Origin: Candidatus Beckwithbacteria bacterium CG10_big_fil_rev_8_21_14_0_10_34_10
GTDB taxonomy: Bacteria > Patescibacteriota > Microgenomatia > UBA1400
Length of the DNA: 64,000 bases
Direction of reading: 5' to 3'
Assembly: GCA_002773945.1 (NCBI GenBank)
Contig: PEZT01000010.1
Location: forward strand, 4,028 to 68,027
Shown: one piece after another, positions 17,117 to 54,624 of the stretch
Position numbering within the stretch: the first letter of the stretch is position 1
How the letters are laid out: each line of letters opens with the position of its first letter
Made by a program: the position numbers and the translations under genes
The notes under the pieces: model-generated
The model's database searches: none
The model's input: the letters and a program-made list of their open reading frames with translations, nothing else
What the model was told of the DNA's origin: nothing

Positions 17117-18257
17117 GAATAACCTTATTATATCCTTTCTTAGTTTGGCCAGCTATTATTTTCCAATCATATTTTTGAGCCAGTTTAATTCCTTCTTTTT
17201 GTTTTATTCTGTAAGTTTTTTCATTTTTTAAAAGGATATCAATTTTTCTTTCTAGATCTACAGCATCTTTTTTCTTAAATAAAAACCCGCCTTCCCCATT
17301 ATTGGTTATCTCTTTATTAACTTCAATATCGGCAATAACATAAGGCACCCCGCAACTTAAAGCCTCAATCGTTACCAATCCAAAACCCTCAATTACTGAA
17401 GGCAAACAAAACACGTAGCTTTCAGCTAGCAACCTCAGTAATTTATCTCTGTCCAAATCTTTAAAAAACTTAACTTTTTTAAAAAGATTCTTTTTGTTAA
17501 CTAAATCTTTTAGTTTTTCTTCTTCTGGCCCTTGGCCAACGATAAATAGTTGAAACTGGGGATATTTTTTTAAAAGTTTTTCAAAAGCTAAAATTAAATC
17601 ACTCACTCGCTTGTATTTTACTAACCGGCTAATACAAATAATTCTTTTTTTCTTTTTTTCTATTCTTAGACTCATTTCTTTAAGCTTTTTAGACTCCACC
17701 CCGCCGTAAACAATTCTAATTTTACTTTTTAAAATTCCTTCTTTTAAAAGCTTATTTTGGGTAGATTTGCTTAAAGAAATTATTCCAGTCCAAGGAAGTT
17801 TTAAGCTAATTCTTTCAATAATCTCCCCAAATATGCCACTTAAACCAAAGTTTTGGAGCCATTTTCCTTTTAAAACATCAGGCCACCAGGAAATTTTAGG
17901 TTTGTTTTTAAAAACACCAAGAAAAAAAGCTGGTAAAAAACTAACCACATTAGAACCTTCAATTAAATCAAAATCTATTTTTAAACCTTTTGAAAAGGCA
18001 GTCAAAATAAACCCAATTCTCCCAAAGATTGAAAAAAAGCTGGCTTCTACCCTTGATGTTTTTGGACCACAAGGATAAACAACAATCTTATTAATCCTGG
18101 TTTTTTCTCTTAAGCTTTGGGTTTTCCGGCAAAGCACAATTACCTTGTTTTCTTTAGCCAGATTTTTAGCCATAAAATATGTTCTTGCTTCTACACCACC
18201 GGTAAATTTAAGCTGAGAAGAATCTGGAAAAAACTCAGTTAAAAGAAGAATTTTCAT
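17109..18257 (-). CDS. GT4 family glycosyltransferase
   Basis: Motif EGFGLVTIEALSCGVPYVIADIEVNKE. Confidence 0.8.
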   Translation of the reverse strand: MKILLLTEFFPDSSQLKFTGGVEARTYFMAKNLAKENKVIVLCRKTQSLREKTRINKIVVYPCGPKTSRVEASFFSIFGRIGFILTAFSKGLKIDFDLIEGSNVVSFLPAFFLGVFKNKPKISWWPDVLKGKWLQNFGLSGIFGEIIERISLKLPWTGIISLSKSTQNKLLKEGILKSKIRIVYGGVESKKLKEMSLRIEKKKKRIICISRLVKYKRVSDLILAFEKLLKKYPQFQLFIVGQGPEEEKLKDLVNKKNLFKKVKFFKDLDRDKLLRLLAESYVFCLPSVIEGFGLVTIEALSCGVPYVIADIEVNKEITNNGEGGFLFKKKDAVDLERKIDILLKNEKTYRIKQKEGIKLAQKYDWKIIAGQTKKGYNKVIHE

Positions 18258-18607
18258 TCCTTTTTCTTTTTTGGTTTATCTTTTAAGGCTATCTCTCTTA
18301 CCAATTGACTAATTTCTTCCCGAAGATTCTCTATTATTACATTAGTCCTAAAAACTAAATAAAACAAAAGAGCAATGGAAATATATATTATGGCGTCTAC
18401 TCCCCGACCAATCCCTAAAAGACTAGCCCAATAATTGCTAAAACCGGGATAAAAAATAGTAAACAAAGCGGCTAACCACAAAGCCAGCCAAAAAAGAAAA
18501 GACCCAAAATTAATTGTTCCCTCTTTAAAACGAAAGTAAACTCGGGAAACAGCAAAAAGCAAAAATAAACTTAATAGTATTTGAACTGGTAAAAAAATTA
18601 TATTCAT
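18254..18607 (-). CDS. DUF2304-family small membrane protein
   Basis: 117 aa with 3-4 transmembrane helices. Signature LGIGRGVDAIIYISIALLFYLVFRTNV followed by a C-terminal charged coiled-coil tail. This family characteristically accompanies Dpm1-like GT2 genes. Confidence 0.65.
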   Translation of the reverse strand: MNIIFLPVQILLSLFLLFAVSRVYFRFKEGTINFGSFLFWLALWLAALFTIFYPGFSNYWASLLGIGRGVDAIIYISIALLFYLVFRTNVIIENLREEISQLVREIALKDKPKKKKE

Positions 18608-19305
18608 CTTCCCAACCTTAAGACCAATTTTACCAAAACTTTTATCCCATTTAAATTAGATTGGCCTTTGGCTAGAGAATAAGGGGTGTAAATTACCCTT
18701 ATAGGAACTTCACAAAACTTCAGTTTATTTTTCCTAATCTGATCAAAAAATTCTGAAGAAACCTCCATTTGCTGAGTTCTTAACTTAATTTTATTAATTG
18801 CTTTCCTGGAAAAAGCCCGAAATCCAGACTGAGAATCAGTCGGATAAATCCCAAAGAATAAAAAAGTAACCAAATCACTTAACTTTAAAATAATTCTTCT
18901 TAATACGGGAATTTTATTTTTAACCTCTAAAAATCTACTTCCTATGACAACATCAGCTTTCTTTTTCATAATTGGCCCAATTATCTTTTCTATATCTTTA
19001 GAATCATGCTGACCATCGCTGTCCATTGTTACTACCACATCTACTTTTTTCTTTCTTCCATACTCCAATCCTGTCTGAAGAGCGCCACCCAAACCCCGAT
19101 TAATTACATGTTTTAAAACCGCTACTCCTTCTTTTTGAGCCTTCTTAGCAGTTTTATCAACGGATGCATCATCAATAACTACAATTTCTGAAGTTAATTT
19201 AAGGTTTTTTAATTCTTTTTTTAAACTTTTTAAAACTCCCTCAATTACTTTTTCTTCATTAAAGGCAGGCAAGACTACTAAAAGTTTTGTTTTTTTACTT
19301 TTCAT
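18604..19305 (-). CDS. GT2 polyprenyl-phosphate sugar synthase (Dpm1-like, soluble type without C-terminal transmembrane segments)
   Basis: LPAFNEE, VIDDASVDKT, DSDGQHD and SGFRAFS motifs. Confidence 0.75.
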   Translation of the reverse strand: MKSKKTKLLVVLPAFNEEKVIEGVLKSLKKELKNLKLTSEIVVIDDASVDKTAKKAQKEGVAVLKHVINRGLGGALQTGLEYGRKKKVDVVVTMDSDGQHDSKDIEKIIGPIMKKKADVVIGSRFLEVKNKIPVLRRIILKLSDLVTFLFFGIYPTDSQSGFRAFSRKAINKIKLRTQQMEVSSEFFDQIRKNKLKFCEVPIRVIYTPYSLAKGQSNLNGIKVLVKLVLRLGR

Positions 19306-19320
19306 TTATTTTCTAAACAC

Positions 19321-20487
19321 CTAAGCAATCCAAAACCCCCGAACAAAAAGAGCCGTATTAATAACCAGCAAAGTCCCGGAGACAACAAGAATAACTAATT
19401 TTAACCACTTGTTTTTAATCCCGTCTAAAATAAAATAAAGAGGAAAAATTAAACTTATGTATCTTGGCATAGACGATAAGTTACCTGTTAAAGTCGGTAG
19501 AAGGAAAGAACCAAAACTGTAAATTAAATATGGTTTTTTAATCTTTTTAATTACTCCCCAAATAAGCAGACCTAAAACTAACAAGGAAATAAAGAATTCT
19601 TGAGTAATAGTAAAAAACAAAGCCCCATTGCCCTTAATAGTAAACATCATTTTCAAGTACCGCCAAACAACTTGGTGAAAAAGAATTAATTTATCAGTCT
19701 GGCGGGAGGCGCCAAAGCCGCTTTGAACTTGAGCAAAAAAGAAAGGATCACTAAAGTGCTTGTTTAAATAAAAACAAAAAAGCATAAACCCGCTTATACT
19801 TAATAAGGTTAAAAATATAGACTTTAAGTATAAAATAATTTTACTTTTCTCCTTTTTTTCTCTTGATTGATAATATTCATATAAAATGGCTGGAGCGAGA
19901 AAAATTCCCACTAGCCTGGTAGCTGAGGCTAAAGAAGCGAATAAAACCGCCTTAAACCACTGCTTTTTATACAAACCCAAAAAACATAGAATTACAAAAA
20001 GAAAAAATAGTGATTCTGAATAAAGAGCCCCAAAATAAAAACTGGTTGGAAAAAGAAGTAAGGATAACAAAGTAAATTTACTCTCTTTTATCTTTTCTAA
20101 CTTAATTAACTGACGAAAATAATATAAAGCAAAAACAAAAACTAGGTTGCTAATAATTAAACCAGAATAAAGATAATTATCGAAAATTTTAGAAAACCAT
20201 CTTATTGTTAAAGGATATAAAGGGAAAAAAGCCTGAATTAAACCGGTTCCTACATAACCTTTTTCCGCAATAGTAATATAGTGAGGACCGTCAAAATTTG
20301 CCCACTGCCAAATAAACTGACTAGAAGAAAGATTTGATAGAATTGAATCCCAATAGGGAAAACTAGGCCTGAATGGCAGCCATCTTCCCGCTAAAAAGGC
20401 AACTACTAAAAGACCTATCCGCCAAACCAAAAACAACTTAACTGAAGGTAAAATATCTTTAACTAATTTTTTTACATCTTTCATCAA
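19321..20487 (-). CDS. PIG-V/GPI18-like mannosyltransferase family (GT76-like) membrane protein
   Basis: Loop motif NFDGPHYITIAEKGYVGTGLIQAFFPLYPL matches the conserved FDxxHYxxIAexGY...AFFP signature of the Mannosyl_trans2 family. About 9 helices. Confidence 0.6.
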   Translation of the reverse strand: MMKDVKKLVKDILPSVKLFLVWRIGLLVVAFLAGRWLPFRPSFPYWDSILSNLSSSQFIWQWANFDGPHYITIAEKGYVGTGLIQAFFPLYPLTIRWFSKIFDNYLYSGLIISNLVFVFALYYFRQLIKLEKIKESKFTLLSLLLFPTSFYFGALYSESLFFLFVILCFLGLYKKQWFKAVLFASLASATRLVGIFLAPAILYEYYQSREKKEKSKIILYLKSIFLTLLSISGFMLFCFYLNKHFSDPFFFAQVQSGFGASRQTDKLILFHQVVWRYLKMMFTIKGNGALFFTITQEFFISLLVLGLLIWGVIKKIKKPYLIYSFGSFLLPTLTGNLSSMPRYISLIFPLYFILDGIKNKWLKLVILVVSGTLLVINTALFVRGFWIA

Positions 20488-20495
20488 TTTTTTAA

Positions 20496-22244
20496 TTACT
20501 TTTTCTTTCTAGAAATTGACCAGCCCTTAACTGGTATTTTAGAAAACAATTTTATTATCCCTAAAACTAAAACTAGACTCATAACAGTTATTAAGTTTCC
20601 TATTATTCTCGCTGGAGTTCTCTCGGTAAACTTAACTACTATTTTATGTTTACCGGCTGGCACTCTTACACCTATTAAGCCCTGATTATCTGGCCTATCA
20701 TATTTTATTTCTGCTCTTTTCCCATCAATAAATACTTGCCAACCAGGAAAATAGGCAGTATGTTCCCAAATATTAGTTGCTTTGGGAACATCAACTTCAT
20801 AAATATGGCTATTAGTTTTCCAAAGCAACTCTTTAAAAACAACCAGGCCAGAATCACTGGTTAATCTTGATTTAAACTCAGAGATATTGTGTTCTGAAAA
20901 CCAACGAGGCGTATGCTCATGTTGAGTTGAAGTAGTAAAAAGAAAATCATAATAATACATATCTTGTTTTTTCTCCCATAAAAATGGTTTAGTAAACGGC
21001 TGGCAATAAACAAGAGAAACAAAAGCTAAAATAATTCCTATCCCTTTATACTTCTCGCTGACCACTACCGCTAAAACAGCCACTCCCAACATTACTACCC
21101 CTAAAAACCGCCAAGGAAACTGCAAATAGCCCAAAAGGGGGATTAACCTCCAAATAAATAAAGAAAAAGGAAGCATTAAGAAAACTCCACTTAAAAAAAC
21201 AGCTAAACCTCCTAATAAAAAAGCCAGATTTAATTTCTTGTCTTTCTTTTTTTTACCAAAAAAACGACTTAATCCCCATTTAATTAAAATCAATAACGCT
21301 AATAAAAATATTACTAAGTGAACCGGTCCTATTTGAAAAGACATTGTATCCCCATCTCCAAGAACAGAAAAACCATACTGCCATTTAGAATAAATTAATT
21401 GCTTTAAATAAACAAAGTGGTCAGGGAAAAAACTTTGCTGGTCAAAAGCCTCCAGCTTGATTGAATTTTGTTCAAAATAAGCTGGAATCCAAAAAAAGGA
21501 AGTTAATAAAAATCCCAATATTAAACCAATCAAACCTAAGTTTACAAATTTTAATTTTTCCTTCTGACCCTCCTTTTTATAAACATAAAAATAATAAAGA
21601 AAAATTAAAGGAGTAAAAAGCATTACCATAATATTGTGCGACAAAGAAAAAAGGGCAGTCACTACAACTAATCCTAAAAACCTTAACCTGGATTTTTTCT
21701 CAAATAAAAGATCAAGAAAATATAAAACCCCTGGAAACAAAGCAAAGGTTAAATTTTCCCCCACTATTCCCCTCACATAAATATCTAAAAACTGATAAGG
21801 AGCACTAAGATAGAAAATAGACCCCAGAAAGGCAGCTAAAGAAGAAAAATGCCTTTTTAACCAAAGATAGAAAAACAGACCAGAAAAAAGATAACTGGAA
21901 AAAATTATAATTTTTAGACTGTTCTCTACTCCGAATCCAACCACAATCAGAGGATAAGCTAATATGTTTGGCAGGGGATAAAGATAATTAAAAACCGGGT
22001 AGCCAAATTTGTGATTAAGATTTTTGGCCCATCGAGGCGGAATATGACTATCTTTAATAGATAAATAATAATTAGCAATCCTGGCTAAATGGTTTTCCAA
22101 ATCATGCCCCCTAAATATTCCCGGTTTAAAAAAAGCTCTAAGATTAAAAAAACAAATAACTAAAATTAGAACAATAAATAAATGCTTGATTTTAAATTTA
22201 AAGTTAATTTTAGATAAATTTAAATTAGTTAATAATTTTTTCAT
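20496..22244 (-). CDS. YfhO/PTPS-related-like GT-C-type membrane protein, paralog A
   Basis: N-terminal FRGHDLENHLARI...PPRWAKNLNHKFGYP motif and a C-terminal soluble domain with YFPGWQVFIDGKRAEIKY...VPAGKHKIVVKF, resembling the YfhO C-terminus. Confidence 0.55.
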   Translation of the reverse strand: MKKLLTNLNLSKINFKFKIKHLFIVLILVICFFNLRAFFKPGIFRGHDLENHLARIANYYLSIKDSHIPPRWAKNLNHKFGYPVFNYLYPLPNILAYPLIVVGFGVENSLKIIIFSSYLFSGLFFYLWLKRHFSSLAAFLGSIFYLSAPYQFLDIYVRGIVGENLTFALFPGVLYFLDLLFEKKSRLRFLGLVVVTALFSLSHNIMVMLFTPLIFLYYFYVYKKEGQKEKLKFVNLGLIGLILGFLLTSFFWIPAYFEQNSIKLEAFDQQSFFPDHFVYLKQLIYSKWQYGFSVLGDGDTMSFQIGPVHLVIFLLALLILIKWGLSRFFGKKKKDKKLNLAFLLGGLAVFLSGVFLMLPFSLFIWRLIPLLGYLQFPWRFLGVVMLGVAVLAVVVSEKYKGIGIILAFVSLVYCQPFTKPFLWEKKQDMYYYDFLFTTSTQHEHTPRWFSEHNISEFKSRLTSDSGLVVFKELLWKTNSHIYEVDVPKATNIWEHTAYFPGWQVFIDGKRAEIKYDRPDNQGLIGVRVPAGKHKIVVKFTERTPARIIGNLITVMSLVLVLGIIKLFSKIPVKGWSISRKKK

Positions 22245-23271
22245 AAATTCTCCTCGTTTCTTGGGCAGTTTTCTGCCAGGAAAATTGCTTGGACTGTTTT
22301 AAGCCTTTTTTGCTTAAACCTATTAATTTACTTTTATTATTCCATAAATCAATAATTTTTTTCTCCAATTCTCCTTTATTTTGAGGATTAAAATACTCAA
22401 CCGCTTGACCACCCACTTCAGGCAAACTGGCTTTATTAGAAGATAAAACCGGACAACCGGATTGCATTGCTTCTAAAACCGGCAAACCAAAACCTTCATA
22501 AAAAGAGGGCTGAATATACAATCTTGCCAGATTATATATTTTTACCAAATCATCTATGACTACAAATCCTAAAAGCTTAACTCTCTCTTTTAATTTAAGG
22601 TCTTTTATTAATCTTTTTATTTCTTTTAGCTCTGCTAAACTCTCATTCTCAAAAGCGCTGCCTGCTAAAACTAAATTAATATCATTAAACCTATTTTTAA
22701 CTTCTCCTAAAGCTCTAACTAATAAGCTGACATTTTTATTCCAATTCAAATCACCCACATAAAAAATAAAATTATCAGGCAGGCTATATTTCTTCCTTAT
22801 TTTTTCAAGTTTCTCCTTCTCCTTAAGTTGCCTGAATTCCTCTGAAGCAGCCAAATAAATAGAAAAAATTTTGTCCTTGGGAAAACCAATAATGTCTTCA
22901 ATATCTTTTTTTGAGTTTTCAGAGTCAGTCATGATTGCTGAAACTGATTTAACAATCCTTTTTTGGATTAACCATTTTAATTTTCCTCTTAATCCTGAAG
23001 GATAATTTTTAGAAAATTTTAAAGGAATAAGGTCGTGAATTGTCACCACTACTGGTTTCTTCCTAGGCCATGGCAAAGTGAAGAAAAAAGGGTCAAAATA
23101 TGGAAGATGAATTAAGTCAAAAGAAAATTCATCATTTTTATCTTTTTTTAAAAAATATTGATTATTTCCCTTTAATTCTTTTAAGGCTTTAAAAAGGTTT
23201 AAAGCATAAAACCCCACTCCTCTTTTTAGAGCCCCTGGATGAAGTCTTGAAATATCAAGTAGAACATTCAT
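22225..23271 (-). CDS. GT4 family glycosyltransferase
   Basis: Motif EGFGLPVLEAMQSGCPVLSSNKASLPEVGG. Confidence 0.8.
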   Translation of the reverse strand: MNVLLDISRLHPGALKRGVGFYALNLFKALKELKGNNQYFLKKDKNDEFSFDLIHLPYFDPFFFTLPWPRKKPVVVTIHDLIPLKFSKNYPSGLRGKLKWLIQKRIVKSVSAIMTDSENSKKDIEDIIGFPKDKIFSIYLAASEEFRQLKEKEKLEKIRKKYSLPDNFIFYVGDLNWNKNVSLLVRALGEVKNRFNDINLVLAGSAFENESLAELKEIKRLIKDLKLKERVKLLGFVVIDDLVKIYNLARLYIQPSFYEGFGLPVLEAMQSGCPVLSSNKASLPEVGGQAVEYFNPQNKGELEKKIIDLWNNKSKLIGLSKKGLKQSKQFSWQKTAQETRRIYEKIIN

Positions 23272-28387: not shown

Positions 28388-29193
28388 TAATATTCTTCTT
28401 TTTCTAATAACTGGCTATCAAGTTTTTTATATATCTTTTCCATTGACTCTTTCTTCTGCAACTGCCAAAGCTTGACGTAAATAATAAAAGCGTTAAAAAC
28501 TTGATAAACCACAGCAATAAAACCTTCCATCCCTTCCGTCAACCCCTGTTTAATTATTCCCCGCTGCCAAAATTCTCGGAAACCAGCAGTTATAAAATTC
28601 CACCATTTGACTTTTGAATGATTGGCTTGAAAAAGCAAAGCAGCTTCAAGATCAGTATAATTAATTGTTTTCCTAAGACACCAATTAATTCCCCTGTGAG
28701 TTAAATGAATTATGGATCCTTTAAGTTTACCCATTTTACCTTTTATTTTAGGATACTCATGGAGTTTTCCCTGCCATTTGATTAACTCATTTTTATTAAT
28801 TAATCTTGTTTGTAAATCTGGATACCAACCACCCTTTCTTAAGAATTTTCCCAAAATATAATTCTGGCGCTTAACTTGAAAAGCAAAAATATTTTTAGAC
28901 GGCCTTAAGTTATCGATTTCTTTTTTTAAAGACCTTGTCATCCTTTCATCAGCATCAAGATAAAAAATCCAATCAGAAGTAGCTTTTTTAGCGGCAAAGT
29001 TTCTTTGGGAAGAAAAACCTTGCCATTTGTTATGAAAAACCTTGCTCTTATAAAGTCGACAGATTTCCAGGGTTTTATCAATACTGCCACCATCAATAAT
29101 AACAATTTCACCAGCCCAACCACTAACTGACTTTAAACAATTAGTAATAAAGTTTTCATTATTTTGAGTTAAAATTAAAACGCTAACTTTCAT
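28387..29193 (-). CDS. GT2 family glycosyltransferase (DADE-type), paralog of 26066-26845
   Basis: VSVLILTQNNENFI, IIDGGSIDKT and YLDADERMT motifs. Confidence 0.75.
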   Translation of the reverse strand: MKVSVLILTQNNENFITNCLKSVSGWAGEIVIIDGGSIDKTLEICRLYKSKVFHNKWQGFSSQRNFAAKKATSDWIFYLDADERMTRSLKKEIDNLRPSKNIFAFQVKRQNYILGKFLRKGGWYPDLQTRLINKNELIKWQGKLHEYPKIKGKMGKLKGSIIHLTHRGINWCLRKTINYTDLEAALLFQANHSKVKWWNFITAGFREFWQRGIIKQGLTEGMEGFIAVVYQVFNAFIIYVKLWQLQKKESMEKIYKKLDSQLLEKEEY

Positions 29194-29936
29194 TTTTTAA
29201 ACAATCTCCCCTCTTTATTAAAAACATATAGAAATAAAGTCCATATAATTCCTAAGCCGTATTTAACTGAATTCCAAAAACTGGCTGAAGAAGCTTCGGG
29301 AAAATAGCGGACTGGAACGGGAATTTCACCTACTTTAAAATTATTAGCCACGGCTGAAATTAAAATCTCCTGATCAAAAACAAAACTATTAGACATTCTC
29401 ATAAAAGGAATTTTTTCTAAAGCTTTAGCTGAGTAAGCCCTAAATCCGGTATGATATTCAGATAAAGTCAAACCTAAAACCACATTCTCTAAAATTGTTA
29501 AAAAACGATTAGGAAAATATTTCCAACTAGGCATGCCTCCGTCAAAAGCTTCTTGCCGAGAACGAATCCTTGAACCCAGCATAATGTCAGCCCTGCCTTT
29601 AGTAATCGGATAAATTAACTCCCTGGTTAAAGTGGCATCATACTGATAATCAGGATGAATCATAACCACAATGTCTGGCTTTCTTTTTAAAGCCTCCCAA
29701 TAGCAAGTTTTTTGATTTCCCCCGTAACCTAAATTAGAAGAATGAAGAAAAACTTTTAACTTAAGCTTCTTAGCTATTCTAACCGTTTTGTCAGAAGAAC
29801 CATCATCAACTAAAATAACCTCATTAACCAAATCTTTTGGGATATCATTATATGTTTTTTCTAAGGTTTTAGCCGCGTTATAAGCCGGCATAATAACAAC
29901 TACTTTTGGTTTTTTTTTACCTTTTAATTCTGGCAT
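29190..29936 (-). CDS. GT2 polyprenyl-phosphate sugar synthase (Dpm1-like)
   Basis: IMPAYNAAKT, LVDDGSSDKT, HPDYQYD and HTGFRAYS motifs. Confidence 0.7.
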   Translation of the reverse strand: MPELKGKKKPKVVVIMPAYNAAKTLEKTYNDIPKDLVNEVILVDDGSSDKTVRIAKKLKLKVFLHSSNLGYGGNQKTCYWEALKRKPDIVVMIHPDYQYDATLTRELIYPITKGRADIMLGSRIRSRQEAFDGGMPSWKYFPNRFLTILENVVLGLTLSEYHTGFRAYSAKALEKIPFMRMSNSFVFDQEILISAVANNFKVGEIPVPVRYFPEASSASFWNSVKYGLGIIWTLFLYVFNKEGRLFKK

Positions 29937-31647
29937 ATTTTTTTATTCCCAAGCTAATAAAAACTATTAAAGTCAGGAATGATACTAAGTTGCTAACTAA
30001 TCTTAACTTTGTCTCTTTAAAAATTAACTCGACTAAATGATCTCCTTGGGTTAATTTTATCTTTATTCTACCATCATCTTGATAAGAAATCTCAGTTTTT
30101 TTACCATCAATAAACAATTGCCAACCCGGATAATATGCCAGCTTAGTGATAATCTCCGCCTTTTCAGACTCAACCTGACTCTTAAATTTAAAAAAATTAG
30201 ATTTTCTTTCTAAAAGATTATTGTGACTTTCCCCGCTTTCAGGATTAAGCTGGTCTTTCATTTTTTCATTGTTAGTATAGTTAAACCCCCTGGGAGCATA
30301 ATCATTATGTTCACTACTTGTTTCTTCACTCTGCCAATACTCAGAATCAGGAAAATAAGTATACTGATTCACTTTTAAGTGATTCCTGTTCCCATAAAAA
30401 GCTAAAACAAAAATAAAACCAATCAGTCCCCACTTAAAAAAATTATTTTTTAACCCAACCGCCAGGCTGCCAAACAAAATACTGGCGCAAAAAACCGCTA
30501 CCCCTAAAAACCGCCAAGGTATATCGACCATTAAAAACCTATTAATATAAACATAAAGCCAATTGGAATTAGCCAGCATTAAATAAATAGAAAAAAAGAA
30601 AGTTAAAAGAAAAAAAATTATTTTTGAATAAACTACTTTAATAATTTTTTTATTAAATTTAGTAAAAGTAAAAAATAACAAAAGCAAGCTTGTTAAAACA
30701 ACCAGCCACTGGGCAATTCCTACTTGAAAAGACATCATGTCATCTTTCACTCCAGGCATAGAAAAACCATAGCCCCATTTAGAATAAAGCAGTTGTTTTA
30801 AAGTCACAAAATGGGCTTGATAATAACCACCCAGGCCGCCAAAAACATCAGCCACAATCGTATTCTTTCTTTCTAAAGCGGCAGGAAGCCAATAATAAGT
30901 AGTTAAAAGGAGACTTATTAAGCCTGATAAAAAACTAGAAATAAGGTATTTTATCCGCTCTTTGGTTTTAACTAAGTTAAAACCAAACCAGCTAATTAAA
31001 GGAATTAACCATAAAAACAAAGTAATCGCATGAGAAAGAATTACTCCCGCTAAAGAAAAGGCAGTTAAGTTTAACCAAAAGAATTTCTTTTTTGAATTTT
31101 TTCTTAAATTTAATAAACCTAAAAAAACTAAAGGGATAAAGACAAAAGTAACTGCTTCTCCTAAAGCCGCCCTAACAAAAATATTAAGAAATCTGTATGG
31201 CGCCCAAAGATATAAAAATCCACTTAAGAACCCAGCTAACTTTGATGACCAAAGCTTTTTACTAAACCAATACATACTTAAACCAGAGGCAAGATAAGTA
31301 ATAATAAAAACAAACTTTATTGCCCCTCCAAGATTTCCACTAACAAGATACCAACCCTCAGCCAGCCAAAAGGGCAATCTATAGGTAAAAACAAAAAGGG
31401 GATAACCAAATCCAGCCAACGCATTTCCAGCCCATCTTACTGGTAACTGGCCATCAAGTAAACCTTGATGGAAATGTTTTAACCTAATTATTTGATGCCG
31501 ACCGTCATGGCTGGTATAAAAACCCGAATGAAATAAGGATTTTATTCCTAGTAATCCCAAGAGCAACAAAATAACAATATAAATTTTACCTTTCATAAAA
31601 ACCAATTTGTTTAAAAGTTTAAAAATATTTTTATTAGAAATTAGCAC
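29917..31647 (-). CDS. YfhO/PTPS-related-like GT-C-type membrane protein, paralog B
   Basis: FYTSHDGRHQIIRLKHF...PVRWAGNALAGFGYP N-terminal motif and C-terminal YYPGWQLFIDGKKTEISY...GDHLVELIF. Confidence 0.55.
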   Translation of the reverse strand: MLISNKNIFKLLNKLVFMKGKIYIVILLLLGLLGIKSLFHSGFYTSHDGRHQIIRLKHFHQGLLDGQLPVRWAGNALAGFGYPLFVFTYRLPFWLAEGWYLVSGNLGGAIKFVFIITYLASGLSMYWFSKKLWSSKLAGFLSGFLYLWAPYRFLNIFVRAALGEAVTFVFIPLVFLGLLNLRKNSKKKFFWLNLTAFSLAGVILSHAITLFLWLIPLISWFGFNLVKTKERIKYLISSFLSGLISLLLTTYYWLPAALERKNTIVADVFGGLGGYYQAHFVTLKQLLYSKWGYGFSMPGVKDDMMSFQVGIAQWLVVLTSLLLLFFTFTKFNKKIIKVVYSKIIFFLLTFFFSIYLMLANSNWLYVYINRFLMVDIPWRFLGVAVFCASILFGSLAVGLKNNFFKWGLIGFIFVLAFYGNRNHLKVNQYTYFPDSEYWQSEETSSEHNDYAPRGFNYTNNEKMKDQLNPESGESHNNLLERKSNFFKFKSQVESEKAEIITKLAYYPGWQLFIDGKKTEISYQDDGRIKIKLTQGDHLVELIFKETKLRLVSNLVSFLTLIVFISLGIKKYARIKR

Positions 31648-33331
31648 TCAAGGTATAATAAACTTCATTATTAAACTTACTCTTTATTTTAGTAATGACT
31701 CTCTTGTCTAAGGTTTTATCTCCTTTTAAAACATATATCTGCTTTAATTTATCGTTTGGCAGGGGATTATCAACAAAAATATATTTATCAAACTTCTCTA
31801 CCCATTCTAATCCAACCGGATAGCCTGAATATCTTTTTACTTCTTGACTGAATTCTAACGGTGGATATGCCCGGTAAAAAAGCAAATAAGCATAAGCCCC
31901 ATCAGAAGAGATATTAAAAACAATCTCTTCTGCCTCGGTTTCATATCCCTTAAGATAAACCAAAGCTTCTTTTAATCCCGGCTGAAGCTCCGATGGTGGG
32001 TTTTTCCGGTAGTCAATAAAATAGGATTTAGTGAACTGAAAAAAGTTTACCAATAAAACAAACAGCGCTATATAGCCTAAAAATTTAACTTTTCTAAGCA
32101 AAAAGGTTAAGCCTAGGGCAGACAAAAAAATCAAAATTAAAAACATATTTAAAAGTCTAGTGGCATGGGGAGCATCAACAGTCAAAGCTGAAGCTATGGG
32201 AGTCAGAATAAAAAACACCGTCAGAAAAAATTTATTTTCTTTTTTAATCTCCTTGCTTTTTATAAATAACATTAATCCAACCAAGGATAGAAAACCAAGA
32301 ATGAGATAAAAATGAGGCGTTTGGGGAATTTTATGCCAGGGGTGAGTCCCTCCCCCACCAAAAAGAAAATTAGGTGAAAAAGATTTCAAATAATTTTGTA
32401 AAAATATTTTTCCGTAAGCAAGATATTGGTTATAAAAAAGCTTTGCTTTTAAAGAACTTTCAGCCGCCATTTTTAATTGCTTATCATATATATTTAAAGC
32501 AATCTGGGGGTCTCCAAAAATAGTGACTCTCTTTTTCTGCTTGCTAACAGCACTTTGACTTAAAAGAACTAACCCGAAAACAATAAGAATAACTATTAAA
32601 CCAATAATTTGTTTACCAAAGAATCCTTTTTTCTTTTGAAAAAAGTTTATTAAAATAAAAAATCCCCAGGCAATAACAAAGATAGGCCAGATAACTAAAG
32701 AACTTGAATAGGTAAAAAAAGTTAATAAGAAAAAAAGAATAATTAATAAATTTATTTTTCTAAAGCGGTTCTTTACCAGTAAAAAAAGAATTAGAACATT
32801 AAAAAACAAGGCTAAAATGGCTTCAAATGAAAAGCGGGAAAAGAAAATATGCCAAGGAGAAATAGCCAGAAGAAAACTAGCCATTAAGCCGGTTAGTTTC
32901 CCCAACCTAAAACTTTTTTCTGATGACTTAAATAATTCTTTTGTCAGAAAATAAACCATCAAGACCGTTAATCCACCAGTAAAAGCAGCCCAGAAACGAA
33001 CACTAAATTCATTAAGGCCGAAAACAGCAATCGCCATACTGGTAAAATAAATATAAAGAGGTGACTTGTAATCCCCAAATGATTTAAAGCTTAAAGGAAA
33101 CCTTTTCCCCCACTCATCTCTCCCCGTCTTTAAAATACTGTAAGCATTATAGCCGATGGCTGGCTCATCTCTATTAAAAGAAGCTGGAACACTACCTAGG
33201 TTGTAAAAACGAACTATAAATCCTAAAGTAAAAATAAACAATAAAATAAGATCAGTTTTTTTAAACCTTTTTAAAATGAATCCTCTTAAAGCGGTTCCAA
33301 AAGCTTTTAATTTAATTAGTAATTTTTCCAT
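31634..33331 (-). CDS. PMT_2/GT39-GT83-like GT-C glycosyltransferase, tandem paralog 1
   Basis: Loop-1 motif FNRDEPAIGYNAYSILKTGRDEWGKRFPL after TM1, and a PWHIFFSRFSFE motif. Confidence 0.65.
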   Translation of the reverse strand: MEKLLIKLKAFGTALRGFILKRFKKTDLILLFIFTLGFIVRFYNLGSVPASFNRDEPAIGYNAYSILKTGRDEWGKRFPLSFKSFGDYKSPLYIYFTSMAIAVFGLNEFSVRFWAAFTGGLTVLMVYFLTKELFKSSEKSFRLGKLTGLMASFLLAISPWHIFFSRFSFEAILALFFNVLILFLLVKNRFRKINLLIILFFLLTFFTYSSSLVIWPIFVIAWGFFILINFFQKKKGFFGKQIIGLIVILIVFGLVLLSQSAVSKQKKRVTIFGDPQIALNIYDKQLKMAAESSLKAKLFYNQYLAYGKIFLQNYLKSFSPNFLFGGGGTHPWHKIPQTPHFYLILGFLSLVGLMLFIKSKEIKKENKFFLTVFFILTPIASALTVDAPHATRLLNMFLILIFLSALGLTFLLRKVKFLGYIALFVLLVNFFQFTKSYFIDYRKNPPSELQPGLKEALVYLKGYETEAEEIVFNISSDGAYAYLLFYRAYPPLEFSQEVKRYSGYPVGLEWVEKFDKYIFVDNPLPNDKLKQIYVLKGDKTLDKRVITKIKSKFNNEVYYTLSANF

Positions 33332-34992
33332 GAGACAAATGTTTCCATATTTTTTATTTGGCTCCCTTTATAAATTTCTTTTCTGGTACCAATCAATAAA
33401 ACATTCTCAATCTCTTTATCTTTTTCAAAATTTATTGGCCTAAATTCTATTTTACCAACTTCTTTAGTTTCTGAGTAATTCAAAGGCTGATTAGCTAAAA
33501 TCTCTTGCCTTTGATTCTGAAATTCCTCTAGAGAATAATTAGAGTATAAAAGGTAATATAAATAGGGCCGGGCATAAAAATCAGTAAAAACCACTTTCTC
33601 TGCCCTTTTATAATTTTGATTAAGAAAATCAATTGCTTCTCTATAGCCTCCCTGCCAAGCAATAAATGAACGGCTAGAATAATGAACATAGTAATCGTGA
33701 AGATAAAAGAAAAACTGGAAAAATAATAAACAGGAGCCAGCTATTAGAAATATTTTTCTATTTTTAACCACTTTAATTAATTGAAATAATCCAAAACCAC
33801 TAATTATATTTATAAATAAAACTCCATTTAAAGACCTCAAGGCATGAGGAATTTCATAAGGAACACAAGCTGGCAAAAAAGAAACTAATAAAGCTAAGTT
33901 TAAATAAATAAAAAGCTTTTTACTTTTTAAAAACAAATAATATTCTCCATAAATAAAACCTAAAAATGCAATTAGAAACAAAACTCCTACCCTGCCAGAA
34001 GAATGGCGGAGATTAGAATCGCCGGAAAGCAATAGAAACTGTCCAGAAAAATGATCAAAAAAGTGAATTCCTAATTGCTTTCCCTGATACAAAAAACGAT
34101 GATGAATTTTTTTGGCTAAAAAAGAACTACCGTCTTCCTGAATTAATCTATTAGAATATTGAATTAAAAGAATATCTGAAAGAATATTTTTAGTACTTAA
34201 TCTGAATTGGTCTGCTTTAGCGGCCAAAGAAGTATTTTTTAAAGACAGAAAAGACAAATATACTACCATTAAGATAAAAAGAAAAATAGCAATATTTTTA
34301 AAAGATTTTTTCCAAAAGACAAAAAAAGTTAAAACCAGTAGAATTGGTAAAACAATTCTGGCTGAGTAATAAGTATAAATTCCAAAAATAGCAAAAATGG
34401 CTGTTAATCCCAGTAAACCCTTTTTATTTCTCGCTTTTAGAAAAAACAGTAAAGCCAAACTATTAAAAAGCAAGGCTAAATTTCCTTCAAAAGCAGCTCT
34501 GGAAAACTGTAAATGCCAAGGACTAATGGCAAGTAGTAATGAAGCTATTAATGATAAGTATTTAGAATTTAGGCTTGAATATTTAATTTTATCTTTATTA
34601 ATATTTTTATTCTTAAATAGTTCTTGGGTAAGAAAGTAAACTACTAAAACTGTTAAAGTTCCGGCTAAAACTGAAGGAAGACGAATAGCTATCTCCGGAC
34701 TAGTCTTAATCAGTTTAAAAAATGGGACGGCCATTAAAATATAACCAGGCAGTTTATAATCACCCCAAGAAGGATAAATTGGCTGCCACCATGAATTTCC
34801 ATGATGATCTTTACCCGTTAAACTAATTGATTTAGCGTCTAAAGCCATGGCCGCTTCATCCCAATATAATCCAGGAGGTATTTGATTAACTTTATAAACC
34901 CTTAAAATAAAGGCTAATAAAATTACTAGGAATAATAATATTTTATTATTTACTCTTAATTTTAAGTATTTATTTTTAAATTTAAATTTCAT
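33316..34992 (-). CDS. PMT_2/GT39-GT83-like GT-C glycosyltransferase, tandem paralog 2
   Basis: LYWDEAAMALDAKSISLTGKDHHGNSW and PWHLQFSRAAFE motifs. Confidence 0.65.
   Translation of the reverse strand: MKFKFKNKYLKLRVNNKILLFLVILLAFILRVYKVNQIPPGLYWDEAAMALDAKSISLTGKDHHGNSWWQPIYPSWGDYKLPGYILMAVPFFKLIKTSPEIAIRLPSVLAGTLTVLVVYFLTQELFKNKNINKDKIKYSSLNSKYLSLIASLLLAISPWHLQFSRAAFEGNLALLFNSLALLFFLKARNKKGLLGLTAIFAIFGIYTYYSARIVLPILLVLTFFVFWKKSFKNIAIFLFILMVVYLSFLSLKNTSLAAKADQFRLSTKNILSDILLIQYSNRLIQEDGSSFLAKKIHHRFLYQGKQLGIHFFDHFSGQFLLLSGDSNLRHSSGRVGVLFLIAFLGFIYGEYYLFLKSKKLFIYLNLALLVSFLPACVPYEIPHALRSLNGVLFINIISGFGLFQLIKVVKNRKIFLIAGSCLLFFQFFFYLHDYYVHYSSRSFIAWQGGYREAIDFLNQNYKRAEKVVFTDFYARPYLYYLLYSNYSLEEFQNQRQEILANQPLNYSETKEVGKIEFRPINFEKDKEIENVLLIGTRKEIYKGSQIKNMETFVSWKNY
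34486..34524. repeat. 39-nt segment nearly identical (1 mismatch) to 36196-36234 in the neighbouring PMT_2 paralog
   Basis: ttcaaaagcAgctctggaaaactgtaaatgccaaggact compared with ttcaaaagcCgctctggaaaactgtaaatgccaaggact. A second similar block is at 34628-34659 versus 36351-36383. Confidence 0.7.
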
Positions 34993-36695
34993 TGTTCTCT
35001 TATTTCAAAAGCAACATTTTCATCTAAAAAATTAATTGTTTTCAAAAGTCTTCCGGCTGGTATTTCTCCAGCTGATCCCACCATTAGATTCTTTGACCCT
35101 TCTTTTTTTAGACTATCTTCTTCTAAATTAAAAAATACTTTACCTAATCTTGGAATATCAGGTGTTGACTTATATGGTTCAACCAAATCTTGAGCTTTTA
35201 ATGGATCCATTTGAGTGTAAAAAAGATAGTACATATAAGCCCTGCCATAAGCATTAGTTAAATAAATGCTTTCATATTTATTCTCATTTTCCTTAATAAA
35301 GCCGACCGCCTCTTTTAAACCGTATTGCCAATAAGCTGAATAAAGCTTGGGATAATGATGGTAATAAAAATGAAGGTAAAATATAAATTCTATTAAAATT
35401 ATAAAACCAACGGTTAAAAACAATGGTTTTTTATTTATTAACCGTTTTCTTATATAAATAGGAGACTTACTTATAGCAGTAAATAACCCAACTAAGCCCA
35501 AGCTGGAAATAATCATAAAAATTGGAAGGGAAAAAATTGTTCTTAAACTATGAGGGGCGGCTTTAGTAATCGCTCCCGGAACTGGCCCAATTAATAACCA
35601 AGCTAAGATAAGCTGAGCTTGTTTTCTCTTGAAATTCTTTAAAAGAAAAACTACCCCTAAAATTAAAGTAACTATTTCCCAATGATAAAGCTGGCCAAAT
35701 TCTTGGATAGAATGACGAGGGTTTATATCTCCAGACAAAAATAGAAAAGAACCGGAAAAATGGGTAAAGTATTGGTTTAAAAACAAACGGCTATATTCCC
35801 AAAAACGATGATGGATGACTTTTGCCATTACTCCACTCCTATCTTTCTCTATTTTTTTATTTGATTCTAAAACTGGATCTAGGGTAGCAAAAACACTCGT
35901 CTCTTGAAAACGCTGCTGAACCTGGCCGCTTTTTAATGAACTTATTAAAGGAAAAGATAAAACCAAACCTAAAGCTAAAGCCATAATTAAAATTATTTTT
36001 TTTATCTTTAAAGTTCTTTTAAGAAAAACAAAAGTTAAAATCAGAACCAATAAAAAGCTAAAAACCCTCGCTCCGTGATAAGCATATAAAGAAAGACCAA
36101 AACAACCAGCTGAAAATATTAATAAATAGTTCTTTTTAAATGACTTTAGAAAAAGAAAGGCTCCAGTAGAGGTTAAAAACAAGGCTAGATTAGCTTCAAA
36201 AGCCGCTCTGGAAAACTGTAAATGCCAAGGACTTATCGCCAATAATAAGACAGCTATTAGAGGTAAATATTTAAAATTTAAAATTGAATATTTTGAATAT
36301 CTATTTTTATCTTTATAAATATCTATATTTTTACTTTTAAATAGCTCTTTTGTAAGAAAGTAAACCACTAGAACTGTTAGAGTACCAAAGAGGGCTGAGG
36401 GAAAGCGAACGCTAAATTCATTTAAACCAAAGACCGCGATTGAAGGAATTAAAGTATAAACATATAAAGGCGGTTTAAAATCCATAAAAGACTCCAAATA
36501 AACAATTGGCCAGGAGTTTCCCCGATGATCTCTACCTGTTTTTAAAAGTGAATAAGCATCATAACCTAAAGCGGCTTCTTCCCAATATAAAGAAGATGGG
36601 AACTGACTGAGTTTATAAAAACGCAAGAAAACAGCCAATAAAAGCACTAATCCTAAAACCAACCAAACCAAACGACTGTTTTTAATCTTTTTCAT
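34989..36695 (-). CDS. PMT_2/GT39-GT83-like GT-C glycosyltransferase, tandem paralog 3
   Basis: LYWEEAALGYDAYSLLKTGRDHRGNSW and PWHLQFSRAAFE motifs. Closest relative of paralog 2, with shared DNA segments. Confidence 0.65.
   Translation of the reverse strand: MKKIKNSRLVWLVLGLVLLLAVFLRFYKLSQFPSSLYWEEAALGYDAYSLLKTGRDHRGNSWPIVYLESFMDFKPPLYVYTLIPSIAVFGLNEFSVRFPSALFGTLTVLVVYFLTKELFKSKNIDIYKDKNRYSKYSILNFKYLPLIAVLLLAISPWHLQFSRAAFEANLALFLTSTGAFLFLKSFKKNYLLIFSAGCFGLSLYAYHGARVFSFLLVLILTFVFLKRTLKIKKIILIMALALGLVLSFPLISSLKSGQVQQRFQETSVFATLDPVLESNKKIEKDRSGVMAKVIHHRFWEYSRLFLNQYFTHFSGSFLFLSGDINPRHSIQEFGQLYHWEIVTLILGVVFLLKNFKRKQAQLILAWLLIGPVPGAITKAAPHSLRTIFSLPIFMIISSLGLVGLFTAISKSPIYIRKRLINKKPLFLTVGFIILIEFIFYLHFYYHHYPKLYSAYWQYGLKEAVGFIKENENKYESIYLTNAYGRAYMYYLFYTQMDPLKAQDLVEPYKSTPDIPRLGKVFFNLEEDSLKKEGSKNLMVGSAGEIPAGRLLKTINFLDENVAFEIREQ
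36196..36234. repeat. partner copy of the 34486-34524 inter-paralog repeat
   Basis: Direct comparison of the two stretches in the sequence. Confidence 0.7.
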
Positions 36696-38358: not shown

Positions 38359-38409
38359 TTTAAACTTTTTAATTTACATTTTATTAATATTTGTCTTTAT
38401 TTAAAATTA

Positions 38410-42011: not shown

Positions 42012-42015
42012 ACTT

Positions 42016-54617: not shown

Positions 54618-54624
54618 TGAAAAG

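Follow-up and report, generated by a model that had tools for sequence, protein, structure and literature searches.

Three paralogous short-form PTPS_related/YfhO-like GT-C proteins in a glycosyltransferase-rich gene island of a Patescibacterium

The window (that is, the whole 64,000-nucleotide stretch of DNA that was analysed, from Candidatus Beckwithbacteria, a groundwater bacterium not in culture) carries three ORFs, here copies 1 to 3, all on the minus strand and at exactly the coordinates given in the initial annotation, which had described them as membrane paralogs of 571 to 582 aa (Table 1). In pairwise BLASTP comparisons, copies 1 and 2 share 33% identity over 586 columns (E 1.8e-66), copies 1 and 3 share 30% over 554 columns (E 3.7e-55), and copies 2 and 3 share 29% over 546 columns (E 3.2e-44); the three proteins are homologous end to end, with a similarity far above chance. 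The start of copy 2 is ambiguous, with NCBI giving 576 aa from the GTG at 31647 and JGI giving 559 aa from the ATG at 31596. The public UniRef names of all three are those of PTPS-related domain proteins, and the copies are unremarkable members of a family that is very large and has already been catalogued (PF10131; 35,132 cluster representatives at 50% identity).

Table 1. Coordinates of the three paralogs, of elements within copy 1 and of neighbouring genes in the window.
Feature	Coordinates	Strand	Remarks
Copy 1	20496..22244	-	582 aa; short-form PTPS_related/YfhO-like GT-C glycosyltransferase; PIS09374.1, COT75_01710
Codons for H47-D48 of copy 1	22101..22106	-	first extracytoplasmic loop; Asp invariant (60/60), putative catalytic residue
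Copy 1 residues 461-539	20628..20864	-	extracytoplasmic eight-strand beta-sandwich with YFPGW...DGK motif
Copy 1 residues 544-569	20538..20615	-	last TM helix; C-terminus (SRKKK) back in the cytoplasm by positive-inside count
GT4 glycosyltransferase	22225..23271	-	directly upstream of copy 1, 20-bp overlap; Glycos_transf_1, 111 bits
Polytopic protein	19321..20487	-	388 aa; downstream of copy 1; PIG-V/Gpi18-like GT-C, second GT-C of the module
Soluble GT2, PpgS/GacI-like	18604..19305	-	233 aa; Glycos_transf_2, 91.8 bits; no TM segment
DUF2304 membrane protein (GacJ/Rv3632 family)	18254..18607	-	117 aa; 4-bp overlap with the GT2; PF10066, 79.7 bits
Copy 2	29917..31647	-	576 aa from GTG; paralog of copy 1; PIS09383.1, COT75_01755
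Soluble GT2, AglJ/PpgS/DPM-synthase-like	29190..29936	-	248 aa; overlaps copy 2 end by 20 bp; Pfam
Five tandem PMT_2-like GT-C paralogs (31634, 33316, 34989, 36682, 38410)	31634..39945	-	directly upstream of copy 2; PMT_2 matches
Copy 3	59938..61653	-	571 aa; paralog; PIS09407.1, COT75_01875
Polytopic protein, RgtA-D-like GT-C (PF26314)	61650..62867	-	405 aa; upstream of copy 3, 4-bp overlap
Soluble GT2	62833..63594	-	253 aa; two genes upstream of copy 3; best NCBIfam matches PgfS, ArnC
Wzx-family flippase	58499..59956	-	485 aa; directly downstream of copy 3, 19-bp overlap; Polysacc_synt_3, 171.9 bits

The family assignment was examined by Pfam profile search, with gathering thresholds of 26.4 bits for PTPS_related (PF10131) and 28.5 bits for YfhO (PF09586). 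Copy 1 (47.1 bits) and copy 3 (51.7 bits) score above the PF10131 threshold, the alignments covering profile positions 27-325 and 1-313, respectively, of a model of 621 positions; copy 2 has no direct match to this profile at E ≤ 0.1. Against PF09586, copies 1 and 2 score 25.5 and 26.8 bits, respectively (E 2-5e-6), just under the threshold, with the match confined to the C-terminal part (profile positions 739-829 of 835), and copy 3 has no YfhO match in the Pfam search. Copy 3 alone shows a weak match to Pfam GT-C_AftD (18.2 bits, cut-off 26). Among 60 family members, PTPS_related is matched by 49 and YfhO by 11, and all 6 relatives scanned (31-34% identical to copy 1) exceed the YfhO threshold (33.9-61.2 bits), the best match lying in the TM core (profile positions ~67-397) in 3 of them and in the C-terminal domain (755-827) in the other 3. 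No NCBIfam model matches any of the copies, a PDB sequence search with copy 1 returned nothing meaningful (best E 1.2), and tblastn against plasmids yielded marginal matches only, with no annotated YfhO among them. Judged by their profile scores, the copies are members of PTPS_related with YfhO-like character rather than members of YfhO; the YfhO/PTPS-related identity proposed initially thus holds in its PTPS_related part and as a likeness to YfhO, but not as YfhO membership, since no copy reaches the YfhO gathering score. The evidence supports their description as shortened (~550-580 aa) paralogs within the YfhO/PTPS_related superfamily, namely integral-membrane GT-C glycosyltransferases of a class A-like type. 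Of the two outcomes named initially as refuting this identity, the lack of a significant profile match and a C-terminal domain of some unrelated kind, neither occurred.

The N- and C-terminal motifs by which the copies had been recognized are real and common to all three, although their original wording was slightly too strict. Toward the N-terminus, H47-D48, R55, P69, W72, N75, G81 and P83 are identical in the three copies, with PP.W replaced by PV.W in copy 2, GYP by GMP in copy 3, and the H..R spacing off by one residue; toward the C-terminus, the identical residues are Y498, P500-G501-W502, D507-G508-K509, Y515, G522, G531, H533 and F539, and the element first written as (P/Q)(A/G).H is actually (A/Q/P)G.H. 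Invariant in all 60 aligned family members are D48, K111, R158, E163, H203, P254, P377, R379 and G501-W502. In the structural model, D48 lies 13 residues past TM1, directly before a surface helix (residues 49-64); no DxD motif or pair is conserved in the copies, which share this single invariant Asp. The model has 12 membrane spans, two of them kinked, and short surface helices, in place of the approximately 13 helices counted at first, and it bears out the soluble C-terminal domain as a beta-sandwich that carries the motif and precedes the last TM helix. The loop between the last two TM helices of copy 1 comprises ~125 aa (residues 419-543). Short inner loops contain 22 Lys/Arg in 60 residues and short outer loops 1 in 24, and because of this bias loop 1, loop 4 and the beta-domain are placed outside the membrane.

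The modelled fold resembles those of solved GT-C enzymes, the best Foldseek matches among solved structures being STT3, AglB and PglB, with TM-scores of only 0.3-0.4; no solved structure is close. These matches, together with the translational coupling of copy 3 to the Wzx flippase gene, would be in line with an oligosaccharyltransferase- or ligase-like activity, in which a preassembled oligosaccharide is transferred en bloc from a polyprenyl-diphosphate carrier flipped by the neighbouring Wzx. However, the WWDxG signature of STT3, PglB and AglB is absent, with no WW or WWD in any copy, and the scanned window ORFs include no initiating phosphoglycosyltransferase of the Bac_transf or Glycos_transf_4 family; on these two grounds, we reject an identity as oligosaccharyltransferases. 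Furthermore, these genes recur with DPM/PpgS-like monophosphate-sugar synthases and with a DUF2304 protein as partners (see below), and Wzx-family proteins can also flip monophosphate-linked sugars, as exemplified by GacK (10.1101/180810). We consider en bloc transfer improbable. That the copies are GT-C-fold proteins with a non-catalytic or other role, such as scaffolding in the manner of PIG-U, flipping of lipid-linked sugars, or export or anchoring of a polymer, is highly improbable in our assessment.

Each copy has, within two genes, a short soluble GT2 resembling polyprenyl-phosphate-sugar synthases. The best matches of these three enzymes are PpgS, AglJ, dolichyl-P-hexose transferase, PgfS, ArnC and the DPMS structure 5mlz; because their scores lie far under every NCBIfam equivalog cut-off, the lipid-phosphate acceptor of the GT2s is presumptive. 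The GT2 of the copy 1 module matches the PpgS model over profile positions 4-222 of 226 (174 bits, E 2.5e-51; equivalog cut-off 370) and is a putative polyprenyl-phosphate-HexNAc synthase, which would supply the donor of the module. The DUF2304 protein encoded beside it belongs to the GacJ/Rv3632 family, in which GacJ stimulates GacI (bioRxiv 10.1101/180810) and Rv3632 stimulates PpgS (PMC9671496). Copies 2 and 3 have no DUF2304 ORF beside them, as the window holds no other intergenic gap. The 388-aa protein has no Pfam match of its own; most of its homologs carry PF04188 (Mannosyl_trans2), and JGI gives these homologs the name Gpi18-like mannosyltransferase. Both this gene and the upstream GT4 gene are recurrent neighbours, each adjoining copy-1-type genes in at least 13 loci.

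The GT2 that overlaps copy 2 scores 79.5 bits against the NCBIfam AglJ model and 64 bits against PpgS, and its best PDB sequence match is the Pyrococcus dolichol-P-mannose synthase 5mlz (E 2.4e-5). The five PMT_2-like proteins encoded on the other side of copy 2 are related to one another with pairwise E values of 1e-27 to 1e-99. In four other loci, too, runs of such paralogs directly precede a PTPS_related gene on whose far side lies a DPM-like GT2; there the PTPS_related genes are copy-1- and copy-3-like by best match. Next to copy 3, the 405-aa protein has no match in the Pfam copy searched; its homologs carry PF26314 and some also PF09594 (GT87), and a 63%-identical homolog bears the UniRef name [quoted passage not shown]. 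Genes for Wzx are also found near copy-3-type genes in two other loci. The GT4 and GT2 neighbours and the abutting Wzx noted initially are all present, but copy 3 precedes wzx in transcription order rather than following it. No flippase gene lies immediately alongside copy 1 or copy 2. The 388-aa and 405-aa neighbours were considered as the missing flippases and rejected, given the GT-C domains of their homologs. On a contig from another sample with an identical window-end GT2, a GT2-GtrA_DPMS_TM fusion is encoded ~6 kb beyond the window end.

The gene island to which the copies belong runs past both ends of the window and, within these 64 gap-free kilobases, encodes 16 or more GT-C-type proteins and 5 or more GT2s that resemble polyprenyl-P-sugar synthases, along with many GT4 and GT2 genes and a heptose-nucleotide cassette; Wzm/Wzt-like ABC transporter genes lie just outside, and teichoic acid genes are not evident in the window. 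This content bears on the nature of the acceptor. The same enzymology could serve O-glycosylation of Ser/Thr-rich surface or membrane proteins (S-layer, pili, lipoproteins), given that Ser/Thr-rich disordered regions are glycosylated by YfhO-family GT-Cs working with GT2 synthases (GtrB/PgtC2, PgfS/PgfM1; PMC12041528), that the GT2 near copy 3 matches PgfS best in NCBIfam, albeit weakly (67.9 bits; cut-off 500), and that the top structural matches include the protein glycosyltransferases PMT and STT3. The last point loses weight, however, since those matches are no better than that of AftD, which acts on a polysaccharide, or ArnT, which modifies lipid A; moreover, the window holds no candidate gene for a Ser/Thr-rich substrate, and the island, with its Wzx, numerous GT4 and GT2 enzymes, heptose-nucleotide cassette and external Wzm/Wzt-like genes, is of the polysaccharide type. 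A protein acceptor therefore appears rather unlikely, and we favour a growing cell-surface glycan built by the surrounding island.

The gene contexts of the copies recur across the Microgenomates loci sampled, and recurrent modules were found in other Patescibacteria. A co-occurrence with Dpm1-like GT2 genes had been proposed as a check and is borne out, although the partner is of the short, TM-less PpgS/GacI/AglJ type and not of the CsbB/GtrB type. Of the 31 short-form genes flanked by 3 kb or more of sequence, 25 have a DPM/PpgS-like GT2 gene within 3 kb and 10 have it adjacent; these are raw counts, from a set of 62 loci that are not phylogenetically independent and, having been gathered with a narrow copy-1-centred alignment, are biased to copy-1-type genes. 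GT2 genes are dense in such islands, with 11 in the window, so that proximity to a GT2 by itself is weak evidence. Among the Chloroflexota homologs (21-26% identity), which are long (760-1236 aa) and mostly solitary, a DPM-like GT2 gene lies within 3 kb in 2 of 12.

With homology, fold, topology, conserved residues and gene pairing as the observed basis, the copies probably move single sugars from polyprenyl-P-sugar to an acceptor outside the membrane. The scheme that follows goes beyond these observations in its donor type, acceptor, transfer direction and residue roles, which we infer, and would comprise three steps. First, the cytoplasmic short GT2 would transfer a single sugar from its nucleotide-activated form to polyprenyl phosphate, in the case of copy 1 by a PpgS/GacI-like enzyme aided by a DUF2304 GacJ/Rv3632-like subunit. 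Second, the polyprenyl-P-sugar would be flipped, with the Wzx beside copy 3 and the GT2-GtrA fusion just outside the window as candidates. Third, the outward-facing active site of the GT-C would hand the sugar to the extracytoplasmic acceptor; this site may consist of the invariant Asp48 in loop 1 with K111, R158, E163, H203 and R379, which lie at the outer membrane boundary, and the C-terminal beta-sandwich would probably help to keep the acceptor in place. The three copies represent separate lineages, and since genes of the copy-1 and copy-3 types are each found repeatedly, in a gene context of their own, across the Microgenomates loci sampled, their donor sugar and/or acceptor position most likely differ. 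More tentatively, the copies might represent dedicated steps of a glycan assembly line in this CPR bacterium that is unusually rich in GT-C enzymes, runs largely outside the cytoplasm and functionally parallels the assembly of mycobacterial arabinogalactan/LAM, with each paralog served by its own donor synthase; the short form with its beta-sandwich might then be a minimal, experimentally tractable representative of PF10131.

In itself, the finding adds little, the proteins being already public as PTPS-related and conforming to expectation for GT-C enzymes. Its use lies in pointing to PF10131: the searchable literature holds no biochemical or genetic datum for any member of this very large family and no solved structure, one paper listing it in a table as "function unknown". 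The short form found in Patescibacteria is compact, consisting of a 12-TM core and one beta-sandwich, and has an obvious donor-synthase partner (a PpgS-like GT2 with a DUF2304 protein); it is thus well suited as a starting point for biochemical and cryo-EM work on the YfhO/PTPS_related superfamily. It also bears on the composition of the cell surface of CPR bacteria, a subject on which a literature search combining CPR or Patescibacteria with GT-C or glycosylation retrieved nothing.

Among known systems, YfhO proteins act in GlcNAcylation of LTA in Bacillus subtilis and Staphylococcus aureus and in glycosylation of WTA in Listeria monocytogenes. The copies share with this family the layout of an N-terminal polytopic GT-C core and an extracytoplasmic domain before the last TM helix, the C-terminal beta-sandwich with the YxPGW...DG motif and, as seen in close relatives, the TM core, as well as a partner GT2 predicted to make a lipid-phosphate sugar. 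Teichoic acid glycosylation, initially put forward as the precedent, is not the only one, given that the streptococcal YfhO-family proteins PgtC2 and PgfM1/M2 function in protein O-glycosylation (PMC12041528), and the GtcA/GtlA pair, invoked alongside CsbB/YfhO, is an inexact parallel: GtcA is a flippase and GtlA a GT-A, and the corresponding GT-C is GtlB, of the PMT_2 type (PMC8035078). The copies further differ from YfhO in their host, a Patescibacterium, in their partner GT2, which is short and soluble whereas that of the CsbB/GtrB type has two C-terminal TM helices, and in the extracytoplasmic loop, which measures 389 aa in B. subtilis YfhO (PMC5836110) and ~125 aa in copy 1; because this loop is so much shorter, the copies lack YfhO profile positions 400-750. 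With PTPS_related, a family of the GT-C clan, the likeness lies in the scores of copies 1 and 3 and in the PF10131 match of most relatives, whereas the alignment is limited to profile positions 1-325 of 621, the remainder of the model being absent from the copies.

Closest in logic are the GacI/GacJ/GacK(Wzx)/GacL system, which adds the GlcNAc side chain of the group A carbohydrate (bioRxiv 10.1101/180810), and PpgS/Rv3632/Rv3779, responsible for GalN on mycobacterial arabinogalactan (PMC9671496). In both, a short GT2 with a DUF2304 helper forms polyprenyl-P-HexNAc, a flippase (of the Wzx family in GAS) follows, and a GT-C acts outside; the copy 1 module similarly joins a PpgS-like GT2, a DUF2304 protein and a GT-C in one tightly coupled run. 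Unlike the copies, GacL is a PMT_2-type GT-C and not a YfhO/PTPS_related protein, and the copy 1 module differs from both systems in having two GT-C genes (PTPS_related and PIG-V-like) and a GT4. The mycobacterial arabinofuranosyltransferase AftD (PDB 6wbx), the best structural match, shares only 12-14% sequence identity with the copies and, at 1,264-1,400 aa, contains several carbohydrate-binding modules and has an acyl carrier protein partner. The class A GT-C enzymes ArnT, PMT and STT3/PglB are 8-12% identical to the copies, which differ from them in having neither WWDxG nor a DE/DxD pair.

The initial annotation had called three YfhO/PTPS-related-like membrane paralogs, and all three ORFs were present at exactly the coordinates in the table below. 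When the 55 ORFs of 150 aa or more were compared with one another by BLASTP, these three emerged as full-length paralogs, with copy 1 being 33% identical to copy 2 (E 1.8e-66) and 30% to copy 3 (E 3.7e-55), and copies 2 and 3 sharing 29% identity (E 3.2e-44). All three are deposited in NCBI as hypothetical proteins, copy 1 showing 100% identity to the COT75_01710 product of a Candidatus Beckwithbacteria bacterium CG10 metagenome-assembled genome; the host belongs to the Microgenomates group of the Patescibacteria (Candidate Phyla Radiation, CPR). In a three-way alignment, the core of both proposed motifs held, namely H47-D48, R55, P69, W72, N75, G81 and P83 (copy 1 numbering) at the N-terminus and Y498, P500-G501-W502, D507-G508-K509, Y515, G522, G531, H533 and F539 at the C-terminus. 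The strict N-terminal pattern did not, copy 2 having PV.W, copy 3 GMP, and H..R being shifted by one residue, and the C-terminal motif ends in (A/Q/P)G.H, unlike the expression originally given. Copy 2 has two possible starts: the GTG at 31647 used by NCBI creates a 14-bp overlap with the upstream gene, and the alternative ATG at 31596 (JGI), 17 codons downstream, gives 559 aa and leaves a 37-bp gap.

Features of the glycosylation island, with each module listed in the direction of transcription (window coordinates; single values are left ends)
Position	Strand	Module	Feature	Matches
62833		copy 3	GT2	PgfS and ArnC, below equivalog cut-offs
61650		copy 3	405-aa membrane protein
59938-61653	-	copy 3	copy 3, 571 aa, PIS09407.1	PF10131 51.7 bits (profile 1-313 of 621); PF09586 no hit
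58499		copy 3	Wzx
57580		copy 3	GT2
55898-57583	-	copy 3	PMT_2-like
31634-39945	-	copy 2	five tandem PMT_2-like (left ends 38410 to 31634)
29917-31647	-	copy 2	copy 2, 576 aa (GTG start), PIS09383.1	PF10131 no hit; PF09586 26.8 bits
29190		copy 2	GT2	AglJ and PpgS, below equivalog cut-offs
22225		copy 1	GT4
20496-22244	-	copy 1	copy 1, 582 aa, PIS09374.1 (COT75_01710)	PF10131 47.1 bits (profile 27-325 of 621); PF09586 25.5 bits
19321		copy 1	388-aa membrane protein
18604		copy 1	GT2	PpgS, 174 bits, E 2.5e-51, full profile length, below equivalog cut-off
18254-18607		copy 1	117-aa ORF	DUF2304, 79.7 bits
17109		copy 1	GT4
26856; 39942			short GT2s
24834-26060	-		FAD-dependent amine-oxidase-like protein	Amino_oxidase 85 bits; NAD_binding_8
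40696-44341	-		GDP-D-glycero-D-manno-heptose pathway gene set	NTP_transferase, HAD phosphatase, GHMP kinase, SIS isomerase, second NTP_transferase
8833-12469; 14740-16002; 45235-48404	-		proteins without Pfam match
53424-55908	+		proteins without Pfam match

The Pfam cut-offs are 26.4 bits for PTPS_related (PF10131) and 28.5 bits for YfhO (PF09586). The PTPS_related matches of copies 1 and 3 cover the TM core only, and the YfhO matches of copies 1 and 2 are confined to profile positions 739-829 of 835, which correspond to the beta domain immediately preceding the last helix. Of the 60 family members in the alignment, 49 match PTPS_related, 11 YfhO and 7 PMT_2; six relatives sharing 31-34% identity with copy 1 exceed the YfhO threshold, with the best match falling in the TM core (profile ~67-397) in three and in the C-terminal domain (755-827) in the other three. 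Thus, with members matching PTPS_related and/or YfhO, the clade bridges both Pfam models. Unlike YfhO, the short-form clade (~550-580 aa) lacks YfhO profile positions ~400-750, corresponding to the big extracytoplasmic loop, which in Bacillus subtilis YfhO comprises 389 aa (PMC5836110). On sequence grounds, copies 1-3 are assigned to PF10131, two passing the threshold directly and copy 2 by homology, and are YfhO-like, yet do not reach the Pfam threshold for YfhO membership. No NCBIfam model matches them, and a PDB sequence search returned no relative. They are new members of a known, biochemically uncharacterised family, already auto-annotated in UniRef. The results support the original interpretation; the precedents it cited need minor correction.

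In a whole-library profile search, 35,132 cluster representatives passed E ≤ 1e-3 and 9,480 passed the stricter E ≤ 1e-30. Almost all of the top 150 were ~550 aa long, which shows that metagenomes are rich in the short form. Scanning one genome per species, seeded from copy-1 relatives, yielded 62 loci in two groups, one from Patescibacteria (Beckwith-, Pace-, Levy-, Gottesman- and Woesebacteria; 28-41% identity) and the other, made up of long forms (760-1236 aa), from Chloroflexota/Anaerolineae (21-26% identity). Metagenomic proteins P0241-P0244 (1,093-3,329 aa) contain 2-6 tandem full-length PTPS_related short-form units and could be genuine fusions or the product of merged gene calls. Many binned MAG records with these genes (loci L005, L006, L018, L019, L025, L027 and others) are titled 'uncultured Pseudomonadales' or 'Gammaproteobacteria'; gene content and similarity typical of Patescibacteria suggest that these titles are wrong.

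An AlphaFold2 model built from the 60-sequence alignment (pLDDT 92.4, pTM 0.92) matched AftD (score 15.1, 414 residues aligned), STT3B (14.9), Pmt4, ArnT and PglB (14.8), AglB (14.7) and AftA (13.8), with lower scores, down to 8.1, for ALG12, ALG9, DPY19, PIG-M, AftB, PIG-U, ALG6 and ALG3. Judging by the model, AftD is the structure that copies 1-3 resemble most. Foldseek concurs with the GT-C matches at TM-scores of just 0.3-0.4; none of the solved structures is close. The DSSP string of the model gives 12 predicted membrane spans, TM3 and TM7 being kinked. Lysine and arginine account for 22 of 60 residues in the short loops assigned to the cytoplasm and 1 of 24 in the short outer loops. Both termini are accordingly assigned to the inside of the membrane, and loop 1 (35-105), loop 4 (258-306) and residues 419-543 to the outside. 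Residues D48, G81, P83, K111, R158, E163, H203, P254, P377, R379, G501, W502, G522 and G531 are invariant in all 60 sequences; the charged ones all map to the outer membrane boundary and, from topology rather than superposition, would sit where a GT-C active site is expected. A conserved DxD motif is absent from copies 1-3.

The genes of the copy 1 module are joined by overlaps of 4-20 bp or gaps of 8-15 bp, and its 117-aa ORF encodes a protein of the GacJ and Rv3632 family. The best NCBIfam matches of the short GT2s 18604, 29190 and 62833 are polyprenyl-phosphate-sugar synthases, and the top PDB sequence match of 29190 is the Pyrococcus dolichol-P-mannose synthase; no TM segment is predicted in these three, 26856 or 39942. 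The membrane-protein neighbours of copies 1 and 3 were considered as flippases and rejected, homologs of the former having a PIG-V/Gpi18 (PF04188) GT-C domain and those of the latter RgtA-D-like/GT87 (PF26314, PF09594) GT-C domains. Six of the PMT_2-like proteins (~510-570 aa) form a second paralog family (pairwise E 1e-27 to 1e-99), with five in an uninterrupted tandem run; runs of 2-4 also occur in related Patescibacteria loci.

We mapped the neighbourhoods of 63 related loci with HMMs from the window's own gene families, assigning each PTPS_related gene to its best-matching copy. The copy-1-type order GT2 / GT4 / gene / 388-aa GT-C / PpgS-like GT2 recurs in at least 13 loci (e.g., L001), and copy-3-type genes are directly preceded by a DPM-like GT2 or lie near wzx. 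At L018, L029, L030 and L032, runs of PMT_2-like paralogs abut copy-1- and copy-3-like genes (by best hit), with a DPM-like GT2 beyond; copy-2-like loci are few and their context is variable. A DPM/PpgS-like GT2 lies within 3 kb of 25 of the 31 short-form genes having at least 3 kb of flank (directly adjacent in 10), compared with only 2 of 12 lower-scoring, mostly long-form Chloroflexota-type homologs, counts that derive from a scan seeded from copy-1 relatives, with non-independent loci and GT2 genes dense in such islands.

A single gap-free glycosylation island fills the whole 64-kb window, which is ~30% G+C and coding almost throughout on the minus strand, its single intergenic gap above 60 bp being itself an ORF. 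The island encodes at least 16 GT-C-type membrane proteins (3 PTPS-related, 11 PMT_2-like, 1 PIG-V-like and 1 RgtA-D-like), 11 GT2, 7 GT4, 3 methyltransferases, one DegT aminotransferase and one Wzx, and with this GT-C complement is more remarkable than the three copies. The two NTP_transferases of the heptose cassette are 37% identical. Eight proteins of 373-555 aa without Pfam match, including the 38% identical plus-strand paralogs 53424 and 54625, could represent additional, diverged GT-C, Wzy or ligase-like proteins; all five of those checked have 7-11 predicted TM segments. The amine-oxidase-like protein, encoded among glycosyltransferases, may be a sugar-modifying flavoenzyme, e.g., mutase- or oxidase-like. 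On an other-sample contig encoding the identical window-end GT2 (L064), which extends past window position 63594, the island runs ~10 kb further, to trmD, with genes for UDP-glucose dehydrogenase, two epimerases, a GT2-GtrA_DPMS_TM fusion (374 aa), PMT, PMT_2 and a 717-aa GT2-PMT_2 fusion, i.e., GT-A and GT-C in one polypeptide. Another such contig, encoding identical window-start proteins (L065), extends beyond window position 1 and carries island genes for a GT2, epimerases, an ABC2_membrane and ABC_tran pair (Wzm/Wzt-like), DegT, an ATP-grasp protein and NeuB (nonulosonic acid synthase-like).

GacJ binds or stimulates the GlcNAc-P-Und synthase GacI, as does Rv3632 the polyprenyl-P-GalNAc synthase PpgS; extracellular transfer of the sugar then falls to the GT-C GacL or Rv3779, and the Wzx-family GacK is the proposed flippase in group A Streptococcus (bioRxiv 10.1101/180810; PMC9671496). 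In the window, a cytoplasmic GT2, with the DUF2304 helper in the copy 1 module, would produce a polyprenyl-P-sugar; a flippase, possibly the Wzx beside copy 3 or the GT2-GtrA_DPMS_TM fusion ~6 kb past the window end on the L064 contig, would carry it across the membrane, and the outward-facing copies would then transfer the sugar. OST-like en bloc transfer is unlikely, because copies 1-3 lack the WWDxG motif, an initiating phosphoglycosyltransferase was found neither in the window nor in the L064 and L065 flanks, and the partner GT2s resemble monophosphate-sugar synthases. As the acceptor, we favour a surface glycan made by the island, which contains Wzx and the GDP-heptose-type cassette, with the Wzm/Wzt-like ABC genes shortly beyond the window. 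A viable alternative is protein O-glycosylation, since YfhO-family enzymes perform it in streptococci (PMC12041528). By analogy, the GacI/J/K/L and PpgS/Rv3632/Rv3779 systems would be the closest functional counterparts of the three copies.
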